Part shown: positions 5,037 through 40,956 of the stretch, one piece after another
Layout of the letters: each line of letters opens with the position of its first letter
How positions within the stretch are numbered: the first letter of the stretch is position 1
From: Shigella phage JK32
Direction: 5' to 3' (one strand)
DNA: 64,000 nt
Sequence record: MK962753.1
Notes under the pieces: generated by a model
Database searches by the model: none
Told to the model about the DNA's origin: nothing
The model's input: the letters and a program-made list of their open reading frames with translations, nothing else
Made by a program: the position numbers and the translations under genes

Positions 5037-5795
5037 TCATTCTCCGTCAGTTCGTTTCAGGTATTCCAATGCCGCATATAATCTTTGAGGATCGTCTTTG
5101 AACATCCCTAATCCGGCATTACATTTTCCACAAAGAACACCTCTTATCTTACCAGTCTTATGATTATGGTCAAGATGTTTCCACTTTTGGCGTTTTCTCT
5201 CGCCGCATCGTTCATTTATGAATTTTACACCGCATATCTCGCAATTGTCAACTCTGCCTAAAATTTCTAACGCTTCTCTTTTTGATATTTTTATACCATT
5301 TTCGGCATGATGATATGGCCTATCTAGTTCTCGCTCTCGCTTCTCAAACAATCGACACTCATCAGAACAATACTTTTGAGATGCGTTTATTGCAACAAAT
5401 GGTTTACCACATTTAGCGCATTCTCGTTCAATCTTTATGTTTTGTGCCTGGTCCAACGATGCGCAACGAGAACAGCAAAATTTATGATAGCCTCTAGAGT
5501 ATGTATGATAATTTACAGGATTTGGGCATCTTGCACACTTAACTATTCCTGTTATTCCGTGGCGCAATCTATAAACAGCCTCGTTATATGGTTGTTGATT
5601 TCTGAGACCTCCATTACAGAACTTAAACTCATTCCTTATAATCTGAAATTCCGCAGGATACAATTTTTCCATTTCTGGAATTTTATTTTCTTTAAAAAGA
5701 TTTGAGTTTAGTCTATTTCCGCTTTTCGCCTCCAGAACATCAACAATGAACTTTTTGATGTTCACTTTTCTCTCTCCAATACATAACATAACCAT
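5037..5795 (-). CDS. endonuclease VII-domain nuclease with N-terminal Cys-rich zinc-finger region (mob-like)
   Basis: C-terminal DHNHKTGKIRGVLCGKCNAGLG resembles T4 endonuclease VII catalytic region; multiple CxxC pairs. Confidence 0.55.
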   Translation of the reverse strand: MVMLCIGERKVNIKKFIVDVLEAKSGNRLNSNLFKENKIPEMEKLYPAEFQIIRNEFKFCNGGLRNQQPYNEAVYRLRHGITGIVKCARCPNPVNYHTYSRGYHKFCCSRCASLDQAQNIKIERECAKCGKPFVAINASQKYCSDECRLFEKRERELDRPYHHAENGIKISKREALEILGRVDNCEICGVKFINERCGERKRQKWKHLDHNHKTGKIRGVLCGKCNAGLGMFKDDPQRLYAALEYLKRTDGE

Positions 5796-10229: not shown

Positions 10230-10754
10230 TTAGTATCCGCGTTCTTGACGGGCGAAGTTTTCAGCATTTTTCAGATAGTACAGAATAAAGAGTTCTTGAG
10301 CGTCAATACCCAGCGGGATCATCTTTGACAGAATGAAGTGGATCGCGTCCACAAATTCAAATTTCACTTCAAGCTGATCTTCTGGTGACAGTTCAGAGAA
10401 TTTACGCGCTCGCGCTTCCCCGTGGTTCTTTTTCCACATTTTCCAGATTGCACTTGCATCTTTGCCATTGGACATTCCACCCAGCGATGTGTAAAGCTCT
10501 CGTGTTTCGTCTGCGATAGCGTCATCCATCCGTTGCATCCAATCCAGCATTTCACCGCAAGTCTCTAGCTTAGTTGGATTTGGGACCCAATCAAATTTTT
10601 CGGATAATGCAACCTGCAAACCAGTTTGCATTTCTAGCATCACCTGAAACGGATCTTTACCTTCTGCAATCGCGTGATGATATGCGGCGATAGCCGCGTT
10701 AATATCTTTTTCGTTAACCAGACCAGCACAAGAATTAAATTCTGACATATTCAC
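10230..10754 (-). CDS. 56: dCTP pyrophosphatase (dCTPase)
   Basis: 174-aa ORF with strong similarity to T4 gp56, including the C-terminal ...LYYLKNAENFARQERGY. Confidence 0.85.
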   Translation of the reverse strand: MNMSEFNSCAGLVNEKDINAAIAAYHHAIAEGKDPFQVMLEMQTGLQVALSEKFDWVPNPTKLETCGEMLDWMQRMDDAIADETRELYTSLGGMSNGKDASAIWKMWKKNHGEARARKFSELSPEDQLEVKFEFVDAIHFILSKMIPLGIDAQELFILYYLKNAENFARQERGY

Positions 10755-13415: not shown

Positions 13416-14828
13416 TTAGAAAGTCATGTTATTTGCTAGCTCGTCGAGTTTTTCGCGTTTCTCGGCTTGCTGTGCGCTTTGTGGTTTAACTTGTGCATTC
13501 TCCTGATCTGCGATCTGGTTTGGTACTTCATACCAACGCTGATTTCCTTTTTTCACACCAACGTTAAACCGTGAATAGTAGTTCTTATCACCGTAACGAG
13601 ACTTGATCTGCTTCATGAGTTGGACGCCCATTTTAGCCAGGTCTTCGGTTTCAATTACACCCAACATAAAATCTGCAGTAGCCGGAAGACCTGCTGATTC
13701 AGCGGTATCACTCATGTTAAGGTCGGAAGCATCCCAACCCGCGCGGGTAGTTTGTGCCGCAGTCCAACCAACAACATCCCACTTAACAAAAAATCCGCGA
13801 AGTTCTTCCGCAATCGCTTTAACGAGAGTGTAGCTATTCTCAGAGTATACACGCAAGCGAGACGATGCGCAAATCCCCAGATAGTCAACAATCACAACAT
13901 CAGGTTTAAACTGTTTCTTGAGTCGCAATTCATTCATTAACGCCTCAAAGTGGTTGGAGTTCGCGCCACCTGTCGGATATTGCTTGATCATCAATTTTCC
14001 AACCGGACGATCTCCGATCTTCTTATTCTTGACACGCTTCATACGTGCGGAATATTCAGCAAAGGAAACATTACCACTATCCAATTCATCTAAGGTAATG
14101 TCAAGCAAGTTTGCGTCAATACGTTTGGCTACGACATGCTCTGCCATTTCCATAGAGATATACAGAACATTATAACCGCATTCCATATAGTCCGCAGCAA
14201 GAGAACACAAACCCAATGATTTGCCAACGTTTACACCAGCGAGTAAAACATTCAATGTCTTTTTCTCTGCCCCACCTTTCGTGATTTTATTCAACATCGG
14301 CAGCTTAAACGGGATCTTATTCGCTTTAGTCTGATATAGCAAGAATCGTTTTTCAAAGTCATTAAACCAGTCATGACCTACATCAGAATCAAACGTAATT
14401 GATAATGCCTCCTGCATGATCTCAGGAATAGCACCCTCACTCGGCAATTTCTTATTCTGTTTCTCTTTTGGTAGTTGTGCGTTCGCCTGAATCTCAAGCG
14501 CCCGTGACATTGCGTTATACATGGCACGGTCACGAATAAATTTTTCGGTTTCCTTCATTAACCAATCAAGGTCTTCCGGTGTATTCTCAAGCGAATCAAG
14601 AAGAGTTTTAGCCCCTTCATATGTTGTCTGATTGCCTCTCTCCTTGTCTAAAGCAATCTGTAATGCAGTTGGCGTAGGAATATTGGAATATTCGTCTACG
14701 TGCTTTTTAATCAGCTTATAAATCAGTTTTTCTTCGTCTTCGGTGAAGTAGTCCGCTTTAAGATGAGGCCATACATTCGTAAAGAATGCGCCATTGTAAA
14801 TCAACTGTGAAAAGATAGTTTTAATCAT
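13416..14828 (-). CDS. 41: replicative DNA helicase (DnaB-like)
   Basis: 470-aa ORF; GVNVGKS Walker A; collinear with T4 gp41. Confidence 0.9.
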   Translation of the reverse strand: MIKTIFSQLIYNGAFFTNVWPHLKADYFTEDEEKLIYKLIKKHVDEYSNIPTPTALQIALDKERGNQTTYEGAKTLLDSLENTPEDLDWLMKETEKFIRDRAMYNAMSRALEIQANAQLPKEKQNKKLPSEGAIPEIMQEALSITFDSDVGHDWFNDFEKRFLLYQTKANKIPFKLPMLNKITKGGAEKKTLNVLLAGVNVGKSLGLCSLAADYMECGYNVLYISMEMAEHVVAKRIDANLLDITLDELDSGNVSFAEYSARMKRVKNKKIGDRPVGKLMIKQYPTGGANSNHFEALMNELRLKKQFKPDVVIVDYLGICASSRLRVYSENSYTLVKAIAEELRGFFVKWDVVGWTAAQTTRAGWDASDLNMSDTAESAGLPATADFMLGVIETEDLAKMGVQLMKQIKSRYGDKNYYSRFNVGVKKGNQRWYEVPNQIADQENAQVKPQSAQQAEKREKLDELANNMTF

Positions 14829-15142
14829 ACATAGCCCCCAACTACACGCATAACAAAGGTCTTTAGTTTATACCAGAAAGTTTCTTTTTTCAACTTTTCT
14901 TCTGCTTCTTTGATCTGCGCTGTTAACGCCTTAATGACGTGAGGATATACCACATCACGATCTGACGGCGTGGAGTAGTCGACCACAATACCTTTAGTGT
15001 CTGGATCGTATTCAACATTATGAATATAGACAATATGATGCTCTCCCTCTTCATCAACAATTATCAGTTCCTGAATAACTGTCTTCATTGCTTCTTGAAT
15101 CAAGCCGTGTGCTTCTTCTAAACTTGTTGGTTTCTTATCCAT
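14825..15142 (-). CDS. hypothetical protein (position of T4 gene 40)
   Basis: 105-aa ORF; positional only. Confidence 0.3.
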   Translation of the reverse strand: MDKKPTSLEEAHGLIQEAMKTVIQELIIVDEEGEHHIVYIHNVEYDPDTKGIVVDYSTPSDRDVVYPHVIKALTAQIKEAEEKLKKETFWYKLKTFVMRVVGGYV

Positions 15143-15162
15143 AATATAATCCTCTCTAGATA

Positions 15163-15187
15163 TGAAAAAGGGGCACGTAGCCCCTTT
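15163..15187 (-). terminator. rho-independent terminator after uvsX (stem AAAGGGGC/GCCCCTTT)
   Basis: GC-rich hairpin followed by T-run on minus strand. Confidence 0.5.
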
Positions 15188-15197
15188 ACTACCATTG

Positions 15198-16268
15198 TTA
15201 TGCTAACATATCTTCGATTTCTTTGTCAACTGCTTCGTCGCTGATCACTTGCCCCAGCTTATAATGATCGTTGATTGCTTCGTTAAACTTATCGTTTGTC
15301 AGAAGTGGTTTCCAGAACTCAATGCTATTGGTTTCTTTAGCACGGAACTTGCGTTCTTCGGTTTCCATCTCTCCGGTCTCAGTATTCAGGATTGAACGAG
15401 AATACCAGCCGTTTGACGGTTTCACTACCCAGCCTAACTCTACAGCCAACTCCAGCAAACCGGAATAAGGATCGATGCCACCGCTAAATGTTACGCTAAT
15501 CGGGAACTTAGATTTTTCTTTAACGGTTCGTGATTTTTCCGCATTCAGGATAAAATCATAACCAGTAATTTCGGTTCCTTCTTTCTGCTGACGACGACCA
15601 ATAATGAAAACTTCATTGGCTGAATACATCGCGCCCGTACCGCCGGACATAACGGTCTTACTAAACATTTCTTGCGTTTCGTAAGTGTGGTTAATAGCGA
15701 TGCACGGGATATCATTCATAGTCAGATACGGCGTAACCATACGGAACAAGCCTTTAAGTGCTTTAGCTCGCGTCATATCCTGCGCGGATTTCTCATTAAT
15801 CGCGTCTTCAACTTCTTTTTTACTTGCCAAGTTACCGATTGAGTCAATAAAGATGATCACTTTATCTTCACGGGTAATTTGCTCAAGCTGGTTCATGATT
15901 TCAAATTTAAGTTCTTCGATGTTCTTGATTGGAACATGCACCACGCGATCAGGATCTACGCCCATAGATTCCAGATATGCGGAAGTAATACCGAACTCAG
16001 AATCAAAGAACAAACAAGCCGCATCGGGATTCTGTTTCATGTATGCACTAACACAAGTTAATCCCATGTTTGATTTAAAGTGCTTAGACGGACCAGCAAA
16101 GAAAATCAGACCAGATTGAAAGCCTTTTTTAAGATCACCTGAAAACGCAATATTCAGCATCGGGATCTTAGTGCGAGTATTTGTTTTTTCGTTAAAGAAG
16201 CTGGATTTAGACAGTACCGCAGTAGTTTTCAGGGTAGAGTTCTTTTTCAGTTTTTCAAGTACAGACAT
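15198..16268 (-). CDS. uvsX: UvsX recombinase (RecA-like)
   Basis: 356-aa ORF; GPSKHFKS Walker A; strong similarity to T4 UvsX. Confidence 0.9.
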   Translation of the reverse strand: MSVLEKLKKNSTLKTTAVLSKSSFFNEKTNTRTKIPMLNIAFSGDLKKGFQSGLIFFAGPSKHFKSNMGLTCVSAYMKQNPDAACLFFDSEFGITSAYLESMGVDPDRVVHVPIKNIEELKFEIMNQLEQITREDKVIIFIDSIGNLASKKEVEDAINEKSAQDMTRAKALKGLFRMVTPYLTMNDIPCIAINHTYETQEMFSKTVMSGGTGAMYSANEVFIIGRRQQKEGTEITGYDFILNAEKSRTVKEKSKFPISVTFSGGIDPYSGLLELAVELGWVVKPSNGWYSRSILNTETGEMETEERKFRAKETNSIEFWKPLLTNDKFNEAINDHYKLGQVISDEAVDKEIEDMLA

Positions 16269-16279
16269 TATTAATACCT

Positions 16280-16507
16280 CTATTCAGTTAATCCGTAATA
16301 CTTTAATTGCTTCATTGTTATTCGATCTTTGTAGTGCTCTTGAATTAACTTTTTCATCGCATCAACATCGATCGTCACAAATACTTCGTTGCTGTGATTT
16401 CCGTGAACTTTCTTGAAATGCTCTATACCTTCCTCACGTTCACGTTTAATCTTTTCAATGTCTCTCATAGTATATTTCTCACGTTGGCGGGTATCGTCAC
16501 CCAACAC
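16280..16507 (-). CDS. hypothetical protein
   Basis: 75-aa ORF; only gene between uvsX and gene 43. Confidence 0.3.
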   Translation of the reverse strand: MLGDDTRQREKYTMRDIEKIKREREEGIEHFKKVHGNHSNEVFVTIDVDAMKKLIQEHYKDRITMKQLKYYGLTE

Positions 16508-16529
16508 CCGCCATTATACACACTTTATC

Positions 16530-18006
16530 TTAAATGTCAAACAGGTCTGTAAGAGATGCCACTTTTTCATATTGCAGCTTTGCAGCCGTGGTAATGTTCT
16601 CCAGTGGTTTGACGAAAGTCTTATTAAACAACAAAGGCCAGTCTAACCACTTTAACACCTCTGATTCAATTTCTGGAGGAATACGAGTACCGGACAACCA
16701 ACCAAAACAGATTTCTCCAAACGGATTTCGGTCTTTAAGCGGTACAATCATAACCTTCTCGCCTTCACGAATCGGATCTAGTCCGAATTTTCTGGCATTA
16801 CGATTATAACACAATACACTCTTAACCGCATACGGACAACCCTTAATCGGATACCCGTTTGAATCGCTGTATTTCTGTAGGTTGTTTGCAGATGATACCG
16901 CAGCAACCTCAAGATAATCAAGTTTTCTAAATTCTTGCTCAAAAATACCGTAGTATTCCTGCAATGACTCTTCACCTTCCTGCAACATACGGCGAATACA
17001 TTCTTTCAGTGATTTCTGACATGCTTTAGGGGTAGAGCTACGTTGCGTTTCCAAGCCCATGATTTTTAGCTTAGGTTCAGCAAAGCGTGTTCCTTCCATA
17101 TCCCAAACATTAAGAGCATAACGCTTTTTACCAGTCCAGAATCCACCGATACCCGCAGATTTCAACGGAGGACCAGCAATTGCCTCACGGTCCATAAACA
17201 TCAAGTGCTCATAGTTGTTCATGTACTCGCATAACTCGCGATATCCTTTGTCGATAATCGGTTCCATTCGATGTTTACCGAAATTATCAAGGAAGTCAAC
17301 AAGTTTTTCGGTATCGTCAAAACGGTCTTCCCCGCCAACCTTATCAACAACATTGTTAACCAGCACATAAACGGAGTCAGTATCACAATAACGAACATAT
17401 GCAAAATCAGTTGTTCCGCAAAGCTCGTTTAAGTATTCGTTAATCTTACGCTCAATCCACTGAATTGCAAGCTGACCGAACAGTGTGATCGCACTAGCGT
17501 TACGGAGATCATAAAAACGGAATTTAGGATTCCCCAACGCACCATAAAGGGAGTTGATCAAAACTTTTCGAGAAAGCTGGTTTGTATTGCACAAGATCGA
17601 CTCGTCTTTACATTCTTCCAGCAATTTCTCTAAGGCATCTTTGCTCAATTCAGAAAGCATCGATTTAAACGCTTCATCGAAGTCGTGACGCACTTCAACG
17701 CTATAGCTAATGGTTCCCCCATAAACATGATTTTCATCGTGTAGAATCGCTTTACAGAGTTCAGCATTGCGATCACATGCCAACATCATGTTTTTGTACT
17801 GCTTACGCTGGTCAAATACCTTTTTAATCTCAATCGGTACGATACCATGAATATCTTTTCGATACATCCATCCGTTAGGCGAGCAAGAATACTCATCACT
17901 CGGACGCGGGGCAGTTTTATTAATATACTCGTGCATCGGTGCAGCATCAAAAGATCCAGCGATTGTTTCCGGCGAAATGTTAGCCTGACGAATGATTGAT
18001 GGATAC
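16530..18006 (-). CDS. 43: DNA polymerase gp43, exon 2 (polymerase domain; KILINSLYGALGN and YCDTDSVYV motifs)
   Basis: Frame reads WYPSIIRQANISPETI... directly after an in-frame stop, upstream of the annotated Met at 17936; family-B motifs B and C present. Confidence 0.8.
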
Positions 18007-18146
18007 CATTATGTTCAGCGCGGTTCGCTACTCCCGCGCCCGTTCTCTTGCGAACTGCTACATGTCACCATGTAGATCAGACTATATCACATTCTCATAG
18101 AGAATCCTGCCATTTCGAATCGCTTGATTCTACTCTACTCGGTTCG

Positions 18147-18971
18147 TTACCCTTTCGATAGTCGTTGAACAACTGCATCTTTAAGCTCATTTTGATCAAA
18201 CGGTGTTCTCTTACAGTACCCGCTATAATTCTTAGCAAAAGGTTTCTTCTTACCAAAGATCTCTTTTCCTGAATTATATGCTTCAACAAGAAAATTCACC
18301 ATTTCATCAAATGTGAAACTTGCAAATTTAGCATAAGTTTCATTACGTTTTGACATTATTTTACTCATAACTTCCGGTCGTTTAGACGCTGAATTTTCTC
18401 GTTTCTCGCCAGTATTAAATGATACTAACTCACCGGAAACATATCTAGGATCGTCACAACTAACTCTAAACCGATTTCCTTCCTTATCCTTAACGATAAC
18501 AGTATTCTTTAGCTTTTCTGCCATAGAATCAAGACCTTTTCGTATAGTGTCCTCATCAGCCCCGAAATATTTCTTTCCGCTCATATCGGTTCTGGCTTTT
18601 CCGGTCTTGTTTTCGGATATTTTCCGTCTAACTTCCTCTCGCTTGGCTGGGTTATTGTCTCCAGCGAATGCATCTTTGGTTAACGCCTTCACTTTATCGT
18701 CATAAGACCCTCTAGAGATGAAAGCATATGCTCTCTTACACTCACCGTTATTGAATATTAAACACAACAACCGATGCGCCTCTACATGGTCTTCAAACTT
18801 TAGTCTTACGAGATTCCATTTATCTAACCGATGTTCAGGAAACATGGACTTCGGGCATATATGATGCACCTCGGAATATTCTTCACCCTGATACGGATTA
18901 GACACCAGTTTAATGTAGTCGTTTAATGCTTCCTCGTTATGTATTTCGTACTTTCTTAAAATGTCTTTCAT
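18147..18971 (-). CDS. intron-encoded HNH homing endonuclease
   Basis: EVHHICPKS...N...H HNH motif; start set at ATG (MKDILRKY) preceded by GGAGG, ORF track starts upstream at a non-ATG codon. Confidence 0.7.
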   Translation of the reverse strand: MKDILRKYEIHNEEALNDYIKLVSNPYQGEEYSEVHHICPKSMFPEHRLDKWNLVRLKFEDHVEAHRLLCLIFNNGECKRAYAFISRGSYDDKVKALTKDAFAGDNNPAKREEVRRKISENKTGKARTDMSGKKYFGADEDTIRKGLDSMAEKLKNTVIVKDKEGNRFRVSCDDPRYVSGELVSFNTGEKRENSASKRPEVMSKIMSKRNETYAKFASFTFDEMVNFLVEAYNSGKEIFGKKKPFAKNYSGYCKRTPFDQNELKDAVVQRLSKG

Positions 18972-18994
18972 CTCGCGCCTCCAATGTATATCAA

Positions 18995-19002
18995 TATTTA
19001 TA
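18995..19002 (-). promoter_or_regulatory. late promoter consensus TATAAATA upstream of intron ORF
   Basis: Exact TATAAATA on minus strand about 24 nt upstream of the endonuclease ATG. Confidence 0.5.
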
Positions 19003-19120
19003 TACATTATAAGACACGTTAGCTCAAAATGCAACTGCTGCTGATTGTCTCCTTAGAGATTTCCCAGCAATTAAGCAGGTTATTCGATCACTGTCACCAG
19101 TGAAAGCCCCATATCAGTTT

Positions 19121-20352
19121 AGGGAAGTAAGGTCAAAACTCATCATCCATCTGTAAGCATTAGGCACTGGCTCTTTTACGAATGCACCCGGATATGTCTG
19201 TTTAGGCTGTATCTTATTTTCAGGTACTACTTTACCCTCAGCTTTCAGAGATCCGAAAATAATAGCATCCCATACTTTCATCGGGTTATAAACATGGTTA
19301 AATTTAATCTTTGCATAGAAACATAGACTATACACAAGATCGATAAATCCACGCTTTTTATCAATCGCCAGCACACGATCAACGTCGCCGATGTTATAAT
19401 CGATGTAAAGTTGATGGTTGTCATCACGCAATTTCTTTAACGGACCATCATAATCAACCTTACCGATTCCTGTCTCATATTCAGCAACATAATCTAACGC
19501 ATATGTTGGTTGAGTCGTAAAGCTAAATTTCTTGTACAGGTCAATATAATCAAGGCTTTCGATCCCCATGATCGTAAATGCTTCACGCTCGTTGCCAAAA
19601 TCATCCTGTGAGATTCGGGATTTAATCTTACCGCACGGGCTTAGACGGTTAGCGGTTCTACTTCCGAACTTATTACTGATACGTTTAATGATATATGGAA
19701 TATCGAATGTTTCTGTGTTCCAGCCAGTGAAACCAACGGGTCGGTTTTCCTCAAAGAATCGGATGTATTCTAACAGCAATTCATCTTCTGTATCATAGAC
19801 GTTATAAACAACGCGCTCTACAATATCAGGTCGAAGAATAGACTTTCTTGCTTCCCAGATTTCACCGTTTCTTCCTTTCAAATCAAATACAAAGAAACGA
19901 TCATGTACGGAATCATAATGCGTAATTGCATCGATAGGATATTTCGCTTCTTCTGGTTTAGGAAATTCTGGGGCGGTGACCTCAATATCAACCCATGCTA
20001 CACGGATTTTATTTCGGTCATATCGAATCTCGCCTTTATATGTATCGGACAGATAGGAGATGATAAAATCATCCATCCCTAGTGCCTCTTGCCCCATTTC
20101 TCCCATCTTTTTACGCCATTTGTTGGCCTCGTTCATAGATGGGAATTTTTTAGCAATGCAAGGCTTGCCATAGATATCTTTATAATTCGTAACCATACCA
20201 GGCGCGGCATGATGAAATAAAGTTGGCGTATATTCAACGTAACGCTCTTGTTCTTGTCCAGCATCATCAATATAACGCTCGTAGATCTTATCACCTACTC
20301 GCTCACATGACAGAAAATACATAATATAAACTCCTTCACTTACGAAAGACAC
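19121..20352 (-). CDS. 43: DNA polymerase gp43, exon 1 (N-terminal and 3'-5' exonuclease domains)
   Basis: Collinear with T4 gp43 residues 1 to about 410; ORF terminates one codon after ...SFDLTSL. Confidence 0.8.
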
Positions 20353-20404
20353 TCATTATAGGGGAATCGACTTAGTTTGTCAATACCCCTATCCCATCAG
20401 TATC

Positions 20405-20767
20405 TTATCGCCCGATCTGATATTTCTCGATCAGCGTCCACTCTTCTTTCTGTTTGAAAGACAATACACGGAAATTATTAACTTCGGTAGTTTCAAAATC
20501 ACTATCAATCAGGGTACACAGATTCCACTGCGCCAGAAGTTTTGCAATGTTATTACGGCGTAATTCATCTTCCCACGTCATTTTAACACTACGACCATCT
20601 AATTTCAACAACTCCTTGAAATGAACGATGTAATAGCGCCCTTTCTTCTGGAGAATATGACAAGACTGATACAGTGTCTTGTCTCGATTGTTGGCAATGC
20701 CGCAGCGGGTTAAAGTTTCCTTAATTTTAAGGAAGTTTTCAGGACTAATCAAATTAATTTCAATCAT
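20405..20767 (-). CDS. regA: RegA translational repressor
   Basis: 120-aa ORF with strong similarity to T4 RegA (LYQSCHILQKKG, NNFRV.SFKQK). Confidence 0.85.
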   Translation of the reverse strand: MIEINLISPENFLKIKETLTRCGIANNRDKTLYQSCHILQKKGRYYIVHFKELLKLDGRSVKMTWEDELRRNNIAKLLAQWNLCTLIDSDFETTEVNNFRVLSFKQKEEWTLIEKYQIGR

Positions 20768-27200: not shown

Positions 27201-28235
27201 CTAACTTTTTGCGCTATTTACTTCGGCTAAAAGTTCATCAGAAATACGCTTGACCGCCGCAAGTTCTTCCGGTTCTAGGTTTTGTTCTTCCAGATATTCA
27301 TAGACCATCTGAATAGTGCTTTTAACTTCAATAACACCTGTTTCCTGTGATGCGCTACTCTCCAGCTTATGGACCACTTTTAGCTTGTGTACAACGGCCT
27401 CTAATGCGCTTTCTAACTTAGTTAACCCATTATCAGCGACCGTTGCGATAAGACGCACACTAAGCCCCTTAAAGCGTTCTACATCGATTTTATCATCTGA
27501 CGGGTAAGTGATACGCACATGATAAGTTTTGTCATTCTGGATAAACTCTTTTTTGTGTGTATCGGTATCGAATACCCAAAAACCACGCGGATCATTTTCG
27601 TCACCCGCCGTTAGTGTGTATGGTGTGCCAATATACGTTACGTTACCACCATCGCTGATAGTATGAAAGTGACCAGAAAACACTTCACGGTATTTCTTGA
27701 GGAAGTCCGCGCTATAACCTTCAGATTTTAGCCCTTTATAGAAATAGTAACCGGACAATTCCCAATGGCCTACACAATATTCGCTGAATGAGTTTTGAAT
27801 AAACTCTAAAATCTCTGATTTATTGTCATCACAAAACCACGGGAACAGATCAAATGATACACCATCAAAGGTAACTGTTTCCGGTTTATCGATAACCTTA
27901 ATGCAATCATACTGGCTTAACACTTCACGCGGTGCGTTAGGCTGGATCTTGTTTCGTTTAAACATATCATGGTTCCCGACCGTGATATAACAAGTAATAC
28001 CAGCCTCTTCCAGTAACGGGATGATTTTCGTTCTATTAAAACGCATAGTTGCATGTGTGATTGCTTTTCGGCAATCAAACCAGTCCCCTGTCTGAATCCA
28101 TGCCTTAATATTATGTTTTTTTGAATAATCGACTGCCTTTTTAATAGTATCAAGAATATACTCATGTATCCACGGATCATCGTTGCCGATACCAGTATGC
28201 AGATCACCCAAAAGCAAAATTTTCATATTATACAT
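27201..28235 (-). CDS. 47: recombination nuclease subunit (Mre11/SbcD-like phosphoesterase)
   Basis: 344-aa ORF; LLGDLHTG and GNHD phosphoesterase motifs. Confidence 0.85.
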   Translation of the reverse strand: MYNMKILLLGDLHTGIGNDDPWIHEYILDTIKKAVDYSKKHNIKAWIQTGDWFDCRKAITHATMRFNRTKIIPLLEEAGITCYITVGNHDMFKRNKIQPNAPREVLSQYDCIKVIDKPETVTFDGVSFDLFPWFCDDNKSEILEFIQNSFSEYCVGHWELSGYYFYKGLKSEGYSADFLKKYREVFSGHFHTISDGGNVTYIGTPYTLTAGDENDPRGFWVFDTDTHKKEFIQNDKTYHVRITYPSDDKIDVERFKGLSVRLIATVADNGLTKLESALEAVVHKLKVVHKLESSASQETGVIEVKSTIQMVYEYLEEQNLEPEELAAVKRISDELLAEVNSAKS

Positions 28236-28241
28236 AATCTC

Positions 28242-28796
28242 CTAAAAATTTTTAACACCATATTCACCAAAATAAAGATCAACCGCTTTGTCATAAGCTC
28301 TGGCCGCATCTTCTTCGTTGACATAATACCCAAGAGATATTAGTTTATCATTATTTCGTATTCTTGCAACCCATTTCTTCGTATGTTTATGCCAGCTAAC
28401 CCCTTTATACTTGCTTGCTTTATTCTTGTACTTTCCAACGTTACAAGCATTTTTCTTTGCGTCGGACTCTCTAAGATTGCGTGGTGCGTTGTTTAAAGGA
28501 TTTCGGTCTATATGATCTATAATTTCTGGTTGTGTTCCATGCTCAAGAAACCATACAATACGATGTACATATGGCTTTAAAACCCTCCCATTATCCATAA
28601 CAATTGCAATTTGGAGATGATCCTGACTTTTAAAAGTTTTTACTTTATCTCCTGCCTTATAAAACTTTCCTTCGTAATTCTTTCCTCCGGCTCGGCTATT
28701 CTTTAAATGATAAAGAATACCATCGTCGTCATGTCTATATCTTTCTCGTATAATTCGTTGCGTTTCTTCATCCCACAATTTGGAACGTCTACTCAT
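28242..28796 (-). CDS. free-standing HNH endonuclease with AP2-type DNA-binding domain
   Basis: HRIVWFLEHG...IDHIDRNPLNN HNH core plus YKGVSWHKHTKKWVARI AP2-like segment. Confidence 0.65.
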   Translation of the reverse strand: MSRRSKLWDEETQRIIRERYRHDDDGILYHLKNSRAGGKNYEGKFYKAGDKVKTFKSQDHLQIAIVMDNGRVLKPYVHRIVWFLEHGTQPEIIDHIDRNPLNNAPRNLRESDAKKNACNVGKYKNKASKYKGVSWHKHTKKWVARIRNNDKLISLGYYVNEEDAARAYDKAVDLYFGEYGVKNF

Positions 28797-28886: not shown

Positions 28887-29174
28887 TTACAGCATACTTA
28901 ATACCGTTTGCCGTGTACTAATCCACATAGCAGAAAGCAGTTCTGGCGTGTGTGGCTGTTTGTAGATATCACGTAATTTTCCGATAGCGTAGATATACGC
29001 ATCACGGTTATCATCGATGATAGCTTGTTCAGCCCACCGCTTAAGGCGTGCAATCTCTCGCGAGTTCTTACGCAAGATCTTTTCCGCTTTCTTAGCGGCT
29101 TTCGCCTCTAGTTCTGCTTGTACTTTGTCTACTTCATTCACTGCAATCTTGTCATGCTGTTCATCGTAAGTCAT
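28887..29174 (-). CDS. hypothetical protein
   Basis: 95-aa ORF. Confidence 0.35.
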   Translation of the reverse strand: MTYDEQHDKIAVNEVDKVQAELEAKAAKKAEKILRKNSREIARLKRWAEQAIIDDNRDAYIYAIGKLRDIYKQPHTPELLSAMWISTRQTVLSML

Positions 29175-29175
29175 G

Positions 29176-29409
29176 TTATTTTCCTTCTGGGATATAGTCG
29201 ATGATTAAAGAAAATTCATCTTCTGATACATTATAGCTATGTGAGATTGTACCCGTAAAGACCTCAAGATCCGGTGACTTGATATTACACGGATCGATAA
29301 TCACCGGAACGCCGCAATCTCTCAAAAATAATTTGGCGAAATACGGCACAAGGTCAGTTTCAAACTCTGCTTCTTCCAGCAAACGGGAAATGTTAATTTT
29401 CAATCTCAT
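29176..29409 (-). CDS. hypothetical protein
   Basis: 77-aa ORF. Confidence 0.35.
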
Positions 29410-29926
29410 AAAATTGGTCCAGGCTAGGCAATTCCTCGGTCAATACATCTTCAACCTTTGGCGCTTTCGGTTTATTGACCGATTCCTCGTAGTTGTTGAT
29501 TTTATCGTAAATGTCCTGTATGAATGCCTCATCCGCAATCTGGCACATATCAGCGTCGCGTTCGTCATATACATGATGCACAAAATATTTGTATTTTGCG
29601 GCTGTCGCTGTTCTTTCTTTTTTAATGCGTTGCACAAAAGCATTAAAGCACGCTTGCGTAATGTAAGCATGAGGATTTTTATACTTTGTCTCGTCAAAAT
29701 TAATCAAACCCTTGACCGCCGCTTCGATTCCATCGTCGATCATTTCTTCGCGCCATGTTTGACTATAGCCAGAAAAGTTAAAACGCCGTGATAGATTTTT
29801 AGAGATTTGCATAATTGCTAGGCCGATTTGGTTGCTCATAGGCACTTGTCGACCTTCGGCTGCAATTCGTTGTTTCCAACGACAAATTTCTTCGTAAAGC
29901 TCTTTATTGTTTACATAATCAGACAC
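29393..29926 (-). CDS. 55: late transcription sigma factor gp55
   Basis: 177-aa ORF with strong similarity to T4 gp55 ([36 protein letters not shown]). Confidence 0.85.
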
Positions 29927-29966: not shown

Positions 29967-31436
29967 CTATTCCCCATTACCATTATACTTTCTTTGCTTA
30001 GTTATCCACACTCTAACCATCTCTACAGATTCGCCGTCAGACGGATCAAGAGTTTTTCCTTTTTTCTTCATGCGGTACTTAAATCCGTTAAATCTTGCAT
30101 TCTCTTGCTCGTTAAAGTCGAACATCTTTTTAAATGATTTTCGCCCTTTACGCTCACCGCATTCTAGAGGAATCATTCGGTCTGTTATTACATTGGCATT
30201 AGGTAGAAACGTTTTTAGATAATCTACCAACGCCCAATCAGGAACATATAGATTAACATTCTCCTTGCTCTCGTTGTCTCTCAGGTTACAACGCAAACAT
30301 AATTGAAATGCTGGTTCCAGATAATCAGACACATGACGCGCTTTCAAAAACTCGTTTGTCGGGAGATCGCAACTATTAGCAAGACCTTTTAAAATATCAA
30401 TCTCCCATCGTTGAGGGTTAAAGCTGAACATCACAGCAACGTTTTTATGATGAATGTAAGAGTTAAGACCATAAGACCCGTAAGGTATCCGCTCACCAAT
30501 ACCATTTGTGCACGCTTCTCGGTCCCGATTCACGGTATAAATGAAGTCATCACCGCATTCATTTTTAACCATATCAACAAGACGTTCAAAGGTATTGTTT
30601 GTTTCTGACTGGTGACGCGACCATCGTTCAGAGTCCGTCATAAGGATGATGTTAACTCTATCTGTATTTTTATACTCTTTGAAATATAGCCTTGATTCTA
30701 GCGCACTAGGAACAAAATCGCAATTTGCATAGTATCGTAGATACTTCCCACTATATGTATCAAAGAGATTTGCACATGCTATCGTAACCTTTTTAAAGTC
30801 TCCCCACGTACCGTGTTTGTTATCGTTCAAGAAAACAATTTTCGACCCGTTCTTCCGGTGTCCTTCGTTATGTTTTACCATAACGTTGATTTTCTTCTCT
30901 AATAACGCCTCATAAAGCCCTCTAAGAGAAGAATCGATCATATCAGTACCATCCTTTGCACTTTCTATCTTTTCTTTGATAGCGGCCTTCTCAGAGTCTT
31001 TTAGAACTAAGTTCTGTAGGCATTCCGATTCGTCGGCGATTGGTTCGCAATGCTTCGTGATAAGTTCAAGATTAGACTTAAACGGATACTCATTAAATTC
31101 AACCAGTTGAGGAACTTCATCAATGTAAAGAGCATATTCACTAAACATTTTTGAACGCTCCATATTAGATAACGCTGTATGTGTGATGAATATCACATCA
31201 GCACCATCTTTAACTGATTGCATTATCGACGCTTGCACTGTCTTAAGGCTTCTTAGTCTGGTGCTATCAATCAAGACAGCACGACCGCCCATTCTTTTAA
31301 ACTTATTGTAAGATTGTTCACTTAAAACACGAGATGGCGAAGCAATAACCGCTTTTTCTTTTGTCTCTAGGACGTGGGAAAGTATAGCATCAGTTTTCCC
31401 CGCCGCTGGCAATGCGATTAATGTTTCAATCTTCAT
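29967..31436 (-). CDS. P-loop NTPase of unknown function
   Basis: 489-aa ORF; N-terminal LPAAGKTD Walker A and candidate Walker B YIDEVPQ; rest unassigned. Confidence 0.4.
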   Translation of the reverse strand: MKIETLIALPAAGKTDAILSHVLETKEKAVIASPSRVLSEQSYNKFKRMGGRAVLIDSTRLRSLKTVQASIMQSVKDGADVIFITHTALSNMERSKMFSEYALYIDEVPQLVEFNEYPFKSNLELITKHCEPIADESECLQNLVLKDSEKAAIKEKIESAKDGTDMIDSSLRGLYEALLEKKINVMVKHNEGHRKNGSKIVFLNDNKHGTWGDFKKVTIACANLFDTYSGKYLRYYANCDFVPSALESRLYFKEYKNTDRVNIILMTDSERWSRHQSETNNTFERLVDMVKNECGDDFIYTVNRDREACTNGIGERIPYGSYGLNSYIHHKNVAVMFSFNPQRWEIDILKGLANSCDLPTNEFLKARHVSDYLEPAFQLCLRCNLRDNESKENVNLYVPDWALVDYLKTFLPNANVITDRMIPLECGERKGRKSFKKMFDFNEQENARFNGFKYRMKKKGKTLDPSDGESVEMVRVWITKQRKYNGNGE

Positions 31437-31892: not shown

Positions 31893-32162
31893 TCAATAAT
31901 CATAAATAGCCCTCAGTTCTTTATAGCCTCCAATGTGCTCGTTGTCAATGAATATCTGGGGGTATACAAATCGGAGGCTCTTTGAGTTCAGCCTCCCCGC
32001 CAGTTCTTCAATCATATCACGGTCGGGAATAATGTCAACCCCGACCTGCTTGAATACTGGTTTAAGTGTATACGGAATACCCAGATCATCCAGTAGCTTC
32101 ATTGCACCAATACAACCATAACAATGATAAGCCTCTTTCGGTATACCGTATATCTCGATCAT
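31893..32162 (-). CDS. glutaredoxin-like protein (NrdH position)
   Basis: 89-aa ORF with CYGC redox motif. Confidence 0.5.
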   Translation of the reverse strand: MIEIYGIPKEAYHCYGCIGAMKLLDDLGIPYTLKPVFKQVGVDIIPDRDMIEELAGRLNSKSLRFVYPQIFIDNEHIGGYKELRAIYDY

Positions 32163-32659
32163 TTCTCAGCCTTTAATCTTTCTAGTTCTTCTTCCAGTTC
32201 CTTGATCCGTTGGTCACGTTCAAAGTCACGCTGTAACTTAGTGGCGAATACTCGTTTAAACTGATTGTAATCATCGATTTTAAACACTTCTTCTTCGCCA
32301 TAGCGACGTACAGAAACTTCGTAGTTGTTGAAGAATTGTTGCATCATTGCTTCGGATGACAGTTCTGCTGATACTACTTTAAAATATTGATCTTCTGTAG
32401 GCGAAAACCAATTACAAGCATAAAGATAAACCTTTTCATTGTCTGGACACTGGTAAGCCTTACCATCGATTTCAATCACAGAAACATATTCAGGTATACT
32501 AGATGAATCAATAGCTAAGACTTTAAACGCACGGTCCCCGATAAACTCGGAGATCACACGATTCGCATCACTGGTTGCAAATGCTTTACGCGCTTGTTCG
32601 TTTTTCCACTTATAGGTCATACCAACAACAAACATATTACCAACCTCGCTCTTTACCAA
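32159..32659 (-). CDS. paralogous family protein (TYxWK domain plus charged helical tail)
   Basis: MTYKWKNEQARKAF N-terminal motif and RIKELEEELERLKAEK tail. Confidence 0.45.
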   Translation of the reverse strand: MVKSEVGNMFVVGMTYKWKNEQARKAFATSDANRVISEFIGDRAFKVLAIDSSSIPEYVSVIEIDGKAYQCPDNEKVYLYACNWFSPTEDQYFKVVSAELSSEAMMQQFFNNYEVSVRRYGEEEVFKIDDYNQFKRVFATKLQRDFERDQRIKELEEELERLKAEK

Positions 32660-33470
32660 TCAAAAATTCAACTTCACGACGTTTAATGTCTTCTTGAAGG
32701 TCTTTAATCTTCTGGCGATCTTGCATGATTTCATCCATCTTGTCAAGTGCCGCAATGAAATCATCGAAACGTTCAAAGGTTTTACCTTCATTTGCTTCGC
32801 CAAATTTAACCATTGTCAGGCCGTAACGACTACTAAACAGACGTTTCAACTGTCCAACGACCTTAGAATCATCGTTCACCTTTTCTTCTGGTTCTTTCGC
32901 TGTTTCAACTTCACGAAAATATTTTCGTTCAAGCCCAACAAACCACACAGCATCAACATCATCATCAACACCCGCCGAATGAGGATTAAATGTTCCACAA
33001 ACATTATCATTATTGACGTCGATCATAGTAACGAAACCAACAGAATCAACGGAAGATACCGTAAAAGTCTCATCTCCTATCCAATCAGCAATTTTACGGT
33101 TGATATTAGAACAGTGAGAAAACGTCACTTTTGCGTTTACATCCTTCCAAATATAAGTTTTACCAACTTCCCATTTAGGAGGAACTTCTTCAACTTCACG
33201 AAAGAATTTTATATCAAATGGACTAAACAAATATGTTGACGTCCAAATGTCTTTTCCTGTAGCCGTTTTCGCCGTATGATAAACACCGTCTAGCTCTATT
33301 GCATCAATCCAACCATTACCCTCGATCTCGATGATGGTAAATGGCTTGTCACCAATAGCTGCACTGATATCGCTGTTAAGTGGAGAAAGATCACCTGCTA
33401 CGTTAGTAATAAACTCAGTTTTAGCGTTTTCATCTTTCCAAGTGTAAGTTTTACCAATTTCCCATTTCAT
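32637..33470 (-). CDS. paralogous family protein, two tandem domain copies
   Basis: KWEIGKTYTWKDENAKTEF and KWEVGKTYIWKDVNAKVTF within one ORF. Confidence 0.45.
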   Translation of the reverse strand: MKWEIGKTYTWKDENAKTEFITNVAGDLSPLNSDISAAIGDKPFTIIEIEGNGWIDAIELDGVYHTAKTATGKDIWTSTYLFSPFDIKFFREVEEVPPKWEVGKTYIWKDVNAKVTFSHCSNINRKIADWIGDETFTVSSVDSVGFVTMIDVNNDNVCGTFNPHSAGVDDDVDAVWFVGLERKYFREVETAKEPEEKVNDDSKVVGQLKRLFSSRYGLTMVKFGEANEGKTFERFDDFIAALDKMDEIMQDRQKIKDLQEDIKRREVEFLIGKERGW

Positions 33471-33482
33471 AATATATTCCCC

Positions 33483-33962
33483 TTAACCGATTTTATCAAG
33501 TTCGTTTAATGCTTTCTCTGCTTCCTGTATAGCTTGCACTCTTTCCGGCATTTTGTCAAGAAAATCTTTCAACTCTTCAAAACTGGAGATATGACGCAAG
33601 GCGTTAGCACCGATAGCCGCATGTGATTTGCATTCAAAGCGAATTTTATAATTATCCATCGCCAACTTGAGAAGGTCCATCAGTTTAGATTCTTCTGGAA
33701 TAATAATTTCTTCAAATCTGCTACGGTCATGATCCAGAAACCAACAAGATAGACCTACATCGGTTGAACTCATATAAGTTCCATCATGAAGATAAACAGA
33801 CCGCACGTATCCTTTTTTCGCATCAACCGACGCAACTTTAAACGGTAATCTCAGATATTTCAAATAATCAACATCATACCATTTAAAAAATTGGTTTGCA
33901 TCTTTTACATCTTTCCACGCATAGGTCTTACCAGCTTCCCATTTCATAATATCATCTCTCAT
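33483..33962 (-). CDS. paralogous family protein
   Basis: KWEAGKTYAWKDVKDANQF; tail LKDFLDKMPERVQAI. Confidence 0.45.
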   Translation of the reverse strand: MRDDIMKWEAGKTYAWKDVKDANQFFKWYDVDYLKYLRLPFKVASVDAKKGYVRSVYLHDGTYMSSTDVGLSCWFLDHDRSRFEEIIIPEESKLMDLLKLAMDNYKIRFECKSHAAIGANALRHISSFEELKDFLDKMPERVQAIQEAEKALNELDKIG

Positions 33963-34506
33963 TTTTGATACGTGATTCTAATTGGATCATACGGTCGCGC
34001 GTTTGTTTGTATTCTCGGATAGCACCGATCCGGCTAGGCATACCATCCAGTACGCTCTTAATATCTTCTAGGGTAGTAATTTTGGCAATGCTATTATGTA
34101 ACCCCATCTTATCGATCAACTGAATGTCGTAGGCTTCCATAAGCAGACCCAGACGTTCTAATGTTAAATCCGGTTCTTGTTCTTTATCTTCTTCCTTTTC
34201 TTCCGGTTCTGGGATTTCTTTGTCAATAGTAGCTTCGGTAAAGAAACGACGCTCACCAGCCCAAAACCACACACCGGAAAAGCCAATAGGGGATTCTTTT
34301 AACGTCATAGAGTCGTAACCACTGCCGATAATAGTAATTTCTCTAACATCACCATCATCGTCAATGTCTTCTACCCTAAACGGGCGACCAGCCAACAAGT
34401 CCACAATACGTCTGTTAATAGACGACGAAAATTTAGTCAGTTCGGCTTTCGACGCTTCGCATTCAATCTTGTAAGTTTTACCAACTTCCCATTCCATAAT
34501 AATCAC
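33952..34506 (-). CDS. paralogous family protein
   Basis: EWEVGKTYKIE...; tail LEDIKSVLDGMPSRI. Confidence 0.45.
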   Translation of the reverse strand: MIIMEWEVGKTYKIECEASKAELTKFSSSINRRIVDLLAGRPFRVEDIDDDGDVREITIIGSGYDSMTLKESPIGFSGVWFWAGERRFFTEATIDKEIPEPEEKEEDKEQEPDLTLERLGLLMEAYDIQLIDKMGLHNSIAKITTLEDIKSVLDGMPSRIGAIREYKQTRDRMIQLESRIKNER

Positions 34507-38838: not shown

Positions 38839-38872
38839 GGGAGTATTATAGCATACTCCCTTCGCATGTCAA
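38839..38872 (-). promoter_or_regulatory. early promoter with stem-loop (hairpin GGGAGTA/TACTCCC spanning TATAAT; minus TTGACA 38872-38867)
   Basis: Direct reading; -10 lies in hairpin loop. Confidence 0.5.
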
Positions 38873-40047
38873 GCACTAACTTTTTTCTTTACTGCTTTCA
38901 CCTTCTGGCGAATTGCTCGAATCTCTTCGATCTCTTTTTCAGTCTCTTTAACAATTTCTTTGCGATTCTGAATATCTGTATCGAGATTATCATCAAGTTT
39001 AGGCAGCATGTCAATCAAGAACTTTTTAAAGTCTTTCAGGTTTCTGATAACAGCACCTTCACCCATTACCGCCACCCCTACACCATCCGGCAGATCGCCA
39101 AACAGTTTAACCAGTTCAGACAGATGATCATGATCTTCTAGTGCTTCTTCCGGTTCAGATGGCAGTTCAACAAAGTTATAACGTTCATCATTGCTGATGA
39201 GGTGATACCAGCAAAGCCCGAATGATTTCGGTGTATATTCTACACCATCAATTTCAACCGAGTCAACACTTCCATAATCATCTACTTTAGTTACCTTAAA
39301 TCCTTGTCCCAGCTTTTGAACAATTTCAACAACATGACTTGATACAGTTTCAGCGGTAAACCAATATGGCAAATTATGCTGATTTGGCTTGTAGCGTTCA
39401 CCTACTTTAAATCTCTGACCAGCCGCTTGCATAGCATGAAATTGTTGTTTCGTGATTTCCGCGAAGTATTCAAATTCGCTACCATCAAACACACAAGCCC
39501 ATTGATCACAAAAACGATCTGCCTTGACGGTTTCACCTTTCGCGGTGATCATGGTAGCTGATCCGTGCAATTCTTCTTCAACTAAAAAGCCATATTCGAC
39601 AAAATCGACAAGTTTCATGGCTTCTTTGTGCTCTGGATCATGCTCTCCCCAGAATCGCTTAAATTCTTGCAAACCTTCCGGGGTAAACGAATAACATTTA
39701 CCTTTTTCAAAGTAAGTCGGCATTGCATCCTCTTTCTTGTTCATCGCTTCGTATGCCTCTTTTGAGATGCGTTTAAAGTATTTGCGCTCATTGTGCATAA
39801 TCATAGTAGACCAATAATAAACGATATCCTCAGCGGAATAAACTACATCTCCAGCTTCAATAGTAATAACATGACCGTGGTCATCTTTTTCTAATACTTT
39901 AAAGCCCTTTTCTACGATTTCAGCAACCCGAATATGACCACGGCGCGAAGCATCGGTCAGAATAATTGAATAGCGAGAAAAGTCTAGAAACTCATCTTTA
40001 CCGCCTTCACGGAATGCATAGTAATGACCTTCAAAGAATTTAGCCAT
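38869..40047 (-). CDS. paralogous family protein, three tandem domain copies
   Basis: FEGHYYAFREGGKDEF, FEKGKCYSFTPEGLQEF and a third repeat; tail LKDFKKFLIDMLPKLDD. Confidence 0.45.
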   Translation of the reverse strand: MAKFFEGHYYAFREGGKDEFLDFSRYSIILTDASRRGHIRVAEIVEKGFKVLEKDDHGHVITIEAGDVVYSAEDIVYYWSTMIMHNERKYFKRISKEAYEAMNKKEDAMPTYFEKGKCYSFTPEGLQEFKRFWGEHDPEHKEAMKLVDFVEYGFLVEEELHGSATMITAKGETVKADRFCDQWACVFDGSEFEYFAEITKQQFHAMQAAGQRFKVGERYKPNQHNLPYWFTAETVSSHVVEIVQKLGQGFKVTKVDDYGSVDSVEIDGVEYTPKSFGLCWYHLISNDERYNFVELPSEPEEALEDHDHLSELVKLFGDLPDGVGVAVMGEGAVIRNLKDFKKFLIDMLPKLDDNLDTDIQNRKEIVKETEKEIEEIRAIRQKVKAVKKKVSA

Positions 40048-40071
40048 AATATAATCCTCTCGTTGTTAAGT

Positions 40072-40106
40072 GGGAGTATCTTACTACTCCCGTTTCATCA
40101 TGTCAA
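40072..40106 (-). promoter_or_regulatory. early promoter with stem-loop (GGGAGTA/TACTCCC; minus TTGACA 40106-40101)
   Basis: Direct reading. Confidence 0.45.
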
Positions 40107-40687
40107 GCGTTAAATGACTTTTGGATCTCTTTCAGTTCAGCTACTTTATCGGCGCTGAATTTAGCGTAGGTATCATGTCGAATAATTTCACTTTCAAGAA
40201 AGGTTTCCAGACGAGATCTATTTTCAATAAGGAACTCTTTCAGGTCTTCCGCGTTCTTGATAAAGATTTTATTGTCGGTAATGTCATCTTCAATCGCAAA
40301 GGAGATAGAGCGAACTTTACCAAACAAGTTAATCAGATCTTCCAGAGATTCTTCTTTCTTAACTGGTTTCATTTCTTCAAACTGCTTTTTAGTGATTCGT
40401 TTAAAGTATTTGCGCTCGCTTGCATCAATCATGATTGACGCGCCCTCATAATCATGAGTTTCTACCAAATACACTTTACCCATAACATTAACCGTCAGAA
40501 CTTTAAAGCCCTTGTGAAGCACACCATACAGGAACTTGTTATGTTGTGGATAGCGTTTAACAAATTCCTCTGCGGACTCAGCATTACGGAAAGTGTAATA
40601 ACGACCTCGTTCAAAAACAGCATCATTTGAAGACTTAGCCGGATACAATTTATACGTTTTCTGTACCATAATATAATCCTCTATCAT
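40103..40687 (-). CDS. paralogous family protein
   Basis: FERGRYYTFRNAESAEEF; tail AEDLKEFLIENRSRL. Confidence 0.45.
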   Translation of the reverse strand: MIEDYIMVQKTYKLYPAKSSNDAVFERGRYYTFRNAESAEEFVKRYPQHNKFLYGVLHKGFKVLTVNVMGKVYLVETHDYEGASIMIDASERKYFKRITKKQFEEMKPVKKEESLEDLINLFGKVRSISFAIEDDITDNKIFIKNAEDLKEFLIENRSRLETFLESEIIRHDTYAKFSADKVAELKEIQKSFNA

Positions 40688-40956
40688 TTCACTAATTGAA
40701 CAGCACGAAACAGAATGCGGTCACACGGAAGCAGCATAAATTCCCAACGCGGTTCAAAGTCTTTAGCGGTATATGTTTTCCCATCAACCGAGATTTCACT
40801 TACATAACCAATAGGTGACACTTTAAGAACAGTAAATCCATTCTTGATGACTTCGTAGGTATCTTTCAATCCGTCGTAGTCATCCTCTAGGAAGTCTTTA
40901 CGTGCTTGCTCAGATTTAAAAACATAGGCCACACCGGATTTAAACATCTTACGCAT
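40684..40956 (-). CDS. paralogous family protein (single domain)
   Basis: Start set at MRKMFKSGVAYVFKSEQARKDF after AAGGAGAA; ORF track extends to 41016 into the promoter. Confidence 0.4.
   Translation of the reverse strand: MRKMFKSGVAYVFKSEQARKDFLEDDYDGLKDTYEVIKNGFTVLKVSPIGYVSEISVDGKTYTAKDFEPRWEFMLLPCDRILFRAVQLVK

Follow-up and report, generated by a model that had tools for sequence, protein, structure and literature searches.

Does a phage related to T4 still modify its cytosines when nothing of the T4 hydroxymethylation and glucosylation cassette is seen beside its recombinase gene? The question is raised by the uvsX-gene 43 locus (positions 15198-20352) of Shigella phage JK32 (MK962753.1), of which we analyzed a stretch of 64,000 nucleotides, hereafter called the window. 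An earlier note on this DNA had proposed that it is not modified by the canonical glucosyl-hydroxymethylcytosine (ghmC) route, while allowing that the missing genes could lie elsewhere in the genome. Our analysis supports the proposal by the absence of the genes from the window and from the complete genome of the close relative ECD7, by the literature, and by the avoidance of palindromic restriction sites. We are confident that the phage is a member of Krischvirus that replicates with ordinary cytosine and without the T4 ghmC genes, and that it is protected by the purging of C/G-containing palindromes together with the Dam methyltransferase. The absence of the hydroxymethylcytosine (hmC) pathway in RB49-type phages is already known; published statements of it date back to the early 2000s, and recent papers repeat it. 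This part of our finding restates known biology, because published surveys, restriction digests of RB49 DNA and high-performance liquid chromatography-mass spectrometry (HPLC-MS) of phage TB34 already report it. The palindrome avoidance described below is new, independent support for unmodified cytosine.

The interval between uvsX and gene 43

The window has a G+C content of 40% and carries nearly all of its genes on the minus strand, as it does all the features located below. The order of genes around the locus is gene 41 (13416-14828), gene 40 (14825-15142), uvsX (15198-16268), a small open reading frame (ORF; 16280-16507 and 75 aa in the program-made list), gene 43 (16530-20352, an extent that includes an intron and assumes a GTG start, see below) and regA (20405-20767), followed by genes 62, 44 and 45. 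The uvsX product is a RecA-like recombinase with 63% identity to T4 UvsX and matches to the Pfam families T4_UVSX_C and RecA. The gap between uvsX and gene 43 is 261 bp, while the same interval in T4 measures about 3.6 kb and contains segA, b-gt (beta-glucosyltransferase), 42 (dCMP hydroxymethylase), imm and imm.1. Searches of the window with T4 b-gt, gp42, imm and a-gt (alpha-glucosyltransferase) by tblastn at E<=10 returned only noise. The claim that the interval lacks b-gt, gene 42 and imm therefore stands, and the gene order is confirmed; what most likely does not stand is the length of 75 aa given for the lone ORF.

The most likely start codon of this ORF is ATG 16468, which gives a product of 62 aa (16280-16468), because the alternative GTG at 16507 coincides with the position where transcription from a sigma-70 promoter (16540-16513) is predicted to begin. 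The length of 62 aa is also that of the PHROG 12120 profile, which matches residues 14-75 of the 75-aa version (E-value 7e-42), and that annotated in RB49 (RB49p025), JSE and ECD7. The predicted promoter (TTGACA-16-TATAAT) matches the sigma-70 consensus at 12/12 positions and is followed by the stem-loop GGCGGGT...ACCCGCC at 16512-16486. The two elements form a putative early promoter and stem-loop unit (16486-16540) that precedes the 62-aa ORF and overlaps the stop codon of gene 43. The layout is the same as in the "PeSL" cassettes of RB49 and phi1, in which a promoter and a stem-loop flank mobile ORFans (PMC2839356). A second predicted early promoter with a perfect 12/12 sigma-70 match precedes gene 43 (20383-20355). 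The 62-aa ORF is kept at the uvsX-43 locus in 58 Krischvirus records, and elsewhere we found only distant relatives in a few phages of ~48 kb. It matches no Pfam family and lacks a homolog among T4 proteins; the idea that it could be an analog of Imm was rejected, as it resembles neither T4 Imm nor any other T4 protein. The T4 cassette segA-bgt-42-imm-imm.1 thus has no counterpart here, its slot being occupied by a single early ORFan driven by the promoter/stem-loop unit.

Search for the missing genes in the whole genome

Gene content and sequence matches identify the window as the initial ~64 kb of a Krischvirus (RB49-like, "pseudo-T-even") genome of roughly 165 kb. Megablast searches with positions 15000-20500 and with two 25-kb blocks matched ~60-90 phage records, of which ECD7, MIZ4, kvi, RB49, JSE and phi1 were the best (94-98% nucleotide identity); no matched record was identical to the window. 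The gene order of the window is the same as in ECD7, MIZ4, kvi, RB49 and JSE, and a direct blastn comparison revealed that positions 1-64000 are collinear with the complete ECD7 genome, apart from a few insertions. For protein searches we assembled the complete genomes of ECD7 (164,706 bp) and T4.

Apart from a hit to td, tblastn with T4 gp42, a-gt, b-gt, imm, alc, denB, arn, ipI and ndd yielded no match at E<=0.01 in the window or in ECD7; for a-gt and b-gt there was nothing below E 0.7 in either. The sole match of gp42 in the complete ECD7 genome was td (E 0.01), and in the window it had none. The same searches did find homologs of T4 denA, gp1, cd, frd, tk, gp56 and dam in the window or in ECD7, so that two enzymes serving the ghmC nucleotide pool, gp56 (dCTPase) and gp1 (deoxynucleoside monophosphate (dNMP) kinase), are both present. 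The ECD7 gp1 shows 35% identity to the T4 protein and a match to the Pfam family DNMK. Gene 56 and gp1 also occur in unmodified relatives (PMC2993671). A tblastn search of the whole phage collection with T4 gp42 matched 1,504 records, which could not be separated by genus.

The hit of gp42 to td deserves a comment. The fold of gp42 is that of thymidylate synthase (TS), with an Asp in place of the Asn that specifies uracil. ECD7 has a single gene of the TS family, located between frd and nrdA, whose best match is to the two exons of T4 td. We assign it as td on the basis of the catalytic Cys and the Asn of the PFNVASY motif, the frd-td-nrdA synteny and the match to T4 td. This gene, annotated as "thyA" and unusually long (410 aa), was considered as a candidate for a disguised hydroxymethylase, which was ruled out by the Asn, the T4 td match and the position next to frd and nrdA. 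The protein (39650-40882 of the ECD7 stretch L004, beyond the part covered by the window) has an insertion of ~135 aa between the conserved halves of the TS fold, for which no family match was found.

We also scanned against Pfam and PHROG the window ORFs of at least about 160 aa without an obvious T4 counterpart, and found no glycosyltransferase or TS-like domain among them. The scans identified homing endonucleases, goF/Frd.2-like paralogs, Macro, SLT, an RlaP nucleotidyltransferase and a GrcA-like protein. Three ORFs considered as cryptic transferases were rejected: the 184-aa ORF in the alpha-gt slot is an HNH-AP2 endonuclease, a 392-aa ORF belongs to the goF/Frd.2 family, and a 489-aa ORF has an N-terminus weakly similar to DEAD-box helicases. 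The reservation that hydroxymethylase or glucosyltransferase genes might lie outside the window was not borne out in ECD7, where the proposed whole-genome search for homologs of gene 42, alpha-gt and beta-gt found none.

The alpha-gt slot, gp56 and Dam

In T4 the region between genes 47 and 55 contains 47.1, a-gt, mobB and a-gt.2 to a-gt.5. In the window the left border of this slot is formed by gene 47 (27201-28235), which encodes a recombination nuclease subunit 98% identical to ECD7 gp47. The position of a-gt and mobB is occupied by the gene of a free-standing HNH-AP2 homing endonuclease of 184 aa (28242-28796; Pfam HNH_3 and AP2, PHROG 99), which has no counterpart in ECD7. There follow homologs of a-gt.4 (28887-29174; tblastn E-value 3e-12, DUF2654) and a-gt.5 (29176-29409; E-value 2e-7), for which we use the names of the ECD7 annotation, and then gene 55 (29393-29926). 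The absence of an alpha-gt-like gene, which the earlier note had observed for this interval, is thus confirmed, and the sequences that flank alpha-gt in T4 have been conserved. The slot contains only a homing endonuclease and the conserved neighbors a-gt.4 and a-gt.5.

The dCTPase and Dam genes that the same note had listed are both present. The gene 56 homolog (10230-10748) encodes an NTP pyrophosphohydrolase of the dCTPase/dUTPase family with 49% identity to T4 gp56 over the full length, a weak match to Pfam dUTPase_2 and a match to PHROG 173 (NTP pyrophosphohydrolase); a sequence search against solved structures returned zero matches. The dam gene (41808-42620) encodes an N6-adenine DNA methyltransferase with 46% identity to T4 Dam (Pfam MethyltransfD12, E-value 7.5e-30).

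Avoidance of palindromic sites

Unmodified cytosine exposes DNA to type II restriction enzymes, so palindromic sites are expected to be purged from such genomes, whereas no purging is expected in glucosyl-hmC DNA. We compared the observed/expected ratio (O/E) of 6-mers in the window, ECD7 and T4, with expectations from a maximal-order Markov model. For 6-bp palindromes that contain C/G the summed O/E was 0.61 in the window and 0.62 in ECD7, compared with 0.94 in T4, and the median O/E was 0.67, 0.49 and 0.91, respectively, while the median for non-palindromic C/G-containing 6-mers was 1.0 in all three sequences. The palindromes were lower than the non-palindromes with Mann-Whitney p of 2e-15 in the window and 9e-20 in ECD7, against 0.011 in T4. 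Palindromes with an expectation of at least 8 and zero occurrences numbered 8 in the window and 14 in ECD7, and T4 had none.

Individual sites follow the same pattern. GAATTC, AAGCTT, GGATCC and TCCGGA are each absent from the window, where 13-27 occurrences would be expected, and the observed/expected counts in ECD7 are 0/67 for TCCGGA, 0/47 for GAATTC, 0/36 for AAGCTT and 0/36 for GGATCC. Sites for EcoRI, HindIII and BamHI are thus entirely missing from both sequences; PstI sites number zero in ECD7 and 1 in the window. The two Krischvirus sequences have an O/E of ~0.4 for CCWGG and GGCC. GAATTC, AAGCTT, CCWGG and GGCC all occur at expectation in T4. GATC shows the opposite behavior, as it is avoided in T4 (O/E 0.34) and not in the Krischvirus sequences (O/E 1.05), which also encode Dam.

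Such a pattern would be expected of a lineage whose cytosine has long been unmodified. Our search of the literature for earlier accounts of restriction-site avoidance in RB49 yielded nothing useful. The contrast with T4 provides a clean indicator of unmodified DNA that needs only sequence, and it counts against a published report of hypermodified Krischvirus DNA, which is considered below.

A model for replication with ordinary cytosine

Published data on relatives point in the same direction. According to Table 4 of Petrov et al. 2010 (PMC2993671), gene 42 is found in the T-even phages, JS98, RB69, CC31, the Acinetobacter phages and some Aeromonas phages, and not in the RB49 type; denB and alc have the same distribution as gene 42, alpha-gt occurs only in the T-evens, and beta-gt only in T4 and CC31, while gene 56 is present in all phages except the giant ones, including the RB49 type. 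HpaII and NheI, two enzymes that cytosine methylation would block, cleave RB49 DNA (PMC4041780). A 2026 study (PMC13390438) reported that Krischvirus genomes lack homologs of 5-hmdCMP / 5-hodCMP synthases and DNA glucosyltransferases, and that Krischvirus TB34 (OX001802) contains canonical cytosine and no modified nucleoside by HPLC-MS. Canonical deoxycytidine in virion DNA has thus been shown for close relatives, and by analogy it would be expected in this isolate as well.

With no dCMP hydroxymethylase, dCTP would be used directly, and ordinary dCTP is what the polymerase of this isolate presumably incorporates. The products of alc and denB, which attack or silence cytosine-containing DNA, would then be unneeded, and both genes are missing; arn, ipI and the glucosyltransferases, which protect hmC DNA, are likewise missing. 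Protection from restriction would come from the purged C/G palindromic sites and from Dam, and possibly from further methyltransferases of the kind encoded by ECD7. Exclusion of dCTP is most likely not the role of the retained gp56. This protein is most likely to act as a dUTPase, and/or to supply dTMP for a genome of 60% A+T by the conversion of dCTP to dCMP, dUMP and dTMP via Cd and Td.

RB49-type phages carry out generalized transduction (PMC12115623; PMC8056088), which fits with the lack of denB and hmC. In practical terms, the DNA of such phages is clonable, cuttable by restriction enzymes and targetable by CRISPR systems. Their generalized transduction bears on the safety of phage therapy (PMC12115623).

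Alternative explanations

Three observations weigh against replication with ordinary cytosine. The intact gp56 is awkward in a phage with cytosine-containing DNA and is the one real loose end, given that such DNA in T4 requires the loss of gene 56 together with 42, denB and alc, as cited in passages of PMC12115623 and PMC8056088. Only 64 kb of the isolate itself was seen, so that the whole-genome argument draws on a relative of 94-98% identity and on published genus-level statements. Finally, Krischvirus SAP (OZ034687), which is 99.96% identical to TB34, was found by HPLC-MS to contain about one third 5-hydroxymethyldeoxycytidine (5-hmdC) and about two thirds gentiobiosyl-hmC (alpha-gentiobiosyl-mdC), although its genome lacks known modification genes (PMC13390438). 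The authors' analysis of single-nucleotide polymorphisms (SNPs) gave no lead, and they offered no genetic explanation. Seven Tequatrovirus phages analyzed alongside SAP have the same modification profile, and this identity, together with the palindrome avoidance of Krischvirus, makes it more likely in our view that the SAP result stems from a sample mix-up or contamination than from a hidden pathway.

Taken at face value, the SAP data would mean that Krischvirus cytosines are hypermodified by enzymes not homologous to gp42 or to the glucosyltransferases, and many window ORFs have no assigned function. We nevertheless regard such a pathway as very unlikely, given that the profile coincides with that of the Tequatrovirus phages, that the 99.96% identical sibling TB34 is unmodified, that SNPs gave no lead, that RB49 DNA behaves as unmodified in restriction digests, and that the genus-wide purging of C/G palindromes argues for long exposure to type II enzymes. 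It is still harder to credit that hmC and gentiobiosyl-hmC enzymes unrelated to gp42 and to known glucosyltransferases are encoded among the early ORFs of Krischvirus. An explanation closer to T4 would be that the hydroxymethylase and glucosyltransferase genes have merely moved out of the window within the same genome, of which 64 kb of roughly 165 kb are visible; genomes of the T4 type do shuffle their accessory genes, and the window has its own insertions relative to ECD7. Relocation is nonetheless extremely improbable, because the genes are found neither in complete ECD7 nor in surveys of RB49, phi1, JSE and the genus Krischvirus, because alc and denB, the companions of gene 42, are absent too, and because the strong palindrome avoidance in the window would not persist in ghmC-modified DNA. 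Somewhat better placed, yet still unlikely, is the possibility that the cytosines are protected by site-specific methylation from phage methyltransferases and not left unmodified. Besides Dam, ECD7 has two further genes annotated as methyltransferases, outside the region that matches the window, one of them with an MTS/Eco57I-like domain, and a 2021 survey mentions a DNA-cytosine methyltransferase homolog for the RB49 group (PMC8056088). However, the second of these ECD7 "methyltransferases" has no Pfam match, RB49 DNA is cut by the two methylation-sensitive enzymes named above, and no modified nucleoside was detected in TB34. Site-specific methylation would in any case supplement replication with ordinary cytosine and palindrome purging rather than replace it.

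A probable intron in gene 43

Gene 43, which forms the upper boundary of the locus with a GTG at 20352, is not a single ORF starting there. It consists of two exons and begins at ATG 20322, with an N-terminus (MYFLSCE) identical in RB49. Exon 1 (19121-20322) encodes the N-terminal, exonuclease part, with 52% identity to residues 4-412 of T4 gp43 (Pfam DNA_pol_B_exo1), and exon 2 (16530-18006) encodes the palm and thumb of the DNA polymerase, with 58% identity to residues 413-897 (Pfam DNA_pol_B). On sequence evidence, gene 43 is interrupted by a probable T4-like group I intron with an intact HNH homing endonuclease gene (HEG), for which splicing is predicted. The intron (18007-19120; 1,114 nt) lies in polymerase motif A (DxxSLYPS), and its HEG (18147-18971; the program-made ORF extends to 19034) matches PHROG 12434 (E-value 2e-129) and is weakly similar to T4 MobB.

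The exon-intron junctions were set by comparison with the intronless gene 43 of RB49. The 5' exon ends in ...ACT TCC CT and the intron in ...CATAATG, with a U before the 5' splice site and a terminal G; the predicted splicing restores ...SFDLTSL|YPSIIRQ... (motif A of the PolB family) in a gp43 of 893 aa. The Rfam model RF00028 scored 30.4 bits (E-value 7e-5) in the window and 42.9 bits (E-value 1.7e-9) over the whole HEG-deleted copy of JSE; neither reaches the gathering score of 50. In its 3' core the element is 80% identical to the T4 nrdB intron, 77% to nrdD and 91% to td. In the megablast search with 15000-20500, the full element was found in 11 records and the HEG-deleted form in 2 records, both of JSE; the remaining records match at <=80% coverage, which is the intronless pattern as in RB49. 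GenBank records list the two exons as separate "DNA polymerase" coding sequences.

ECD7 and kvi share with the window the intron and its intact HEG, whereas RB49 has no intron in gene 43 and JSE has a partly deleted HEG. Petrov et al. (PMC2993671) had already proposed that gene 43 of JSE contains an intron whose HEG is truncated. The element resembles the group IA introns of T4 td, nrdB and nrdD and the putative JSE intron in that it has a similar 3' catalytic core, conforms to the splice-site rules, contains an HNH endonuclease and is inserted in a highly conserved catalytic motif. The differences are that here the host gene is that of the DNA polymerase and that the HEG is full-length.

Other features of the window

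We found no tRNA genes in the window, and Rfam at the gathering threshold gave zero matches there. Most of the insertions relative to ECD7 are due to four free-standing homing endonuclease genes that have no ECD7 counterpart at their sites (5037-5795, 28242-28796, 57151-57744 and 58892-59467); by type they are one EndoVII/HNH, two HNH-AP2 and one NUMOD4-HNH. Also essentially absent from ECD7 is a 712-aa ORF (49451-51589) with a weak Ig-like/Hoc-like match at its C-terminus, to which only a 35-aa remnant aligns in ECD7. A family of goF/Frd.2-like paralogs (PHROG 5347/622/8944) accounts for at least 6 genes or domains at 32159-34506 and 38869-40687; this block is fast-evolving, as judged by several members whose identity to the corresponding ECD7 sequences is only 60-80%. 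Directly downstream of gene 55 there is a conserved protein of 489 aa (29967-31436; PHROG 2467), with the weak N-terminal DEAD-box helicase match mentioned above and with no T4 counterpart at this position.

Comparison with known systems

Among the Krischvirus members of Straboviridae, RB49, phi1, JSE and ECD7 share with the window the orders 41-40-uvsX-ORF62-43-regA-62-44-45 and 47-(a-gt.4)-(a-gt.5)-55. Common to all are gene 56 and dam, and all are without 42, a-gt, b-gt, imm and tRNA genes. Compared with ECD7, the window adds the four free-standing homing endonuclease genes and the 712-aa ORF. With respect to the ghmC network of T4 (42, 56, 1, a-gt, b-gt, alc, denB and arn), the likeness lies in the orthologous flanks, with identities of 63% for uvsX, 52-58% for gp43, 49% for gp56 and 46% for Dam, and in the conserved neighbors a-gt.4 and a-gt.5. 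The difference is that gp42, alpha-gt, beta-gt, alc and denB are absent from the phage of the window, and that C/G-containing palindromes are avoided here and not in T4.

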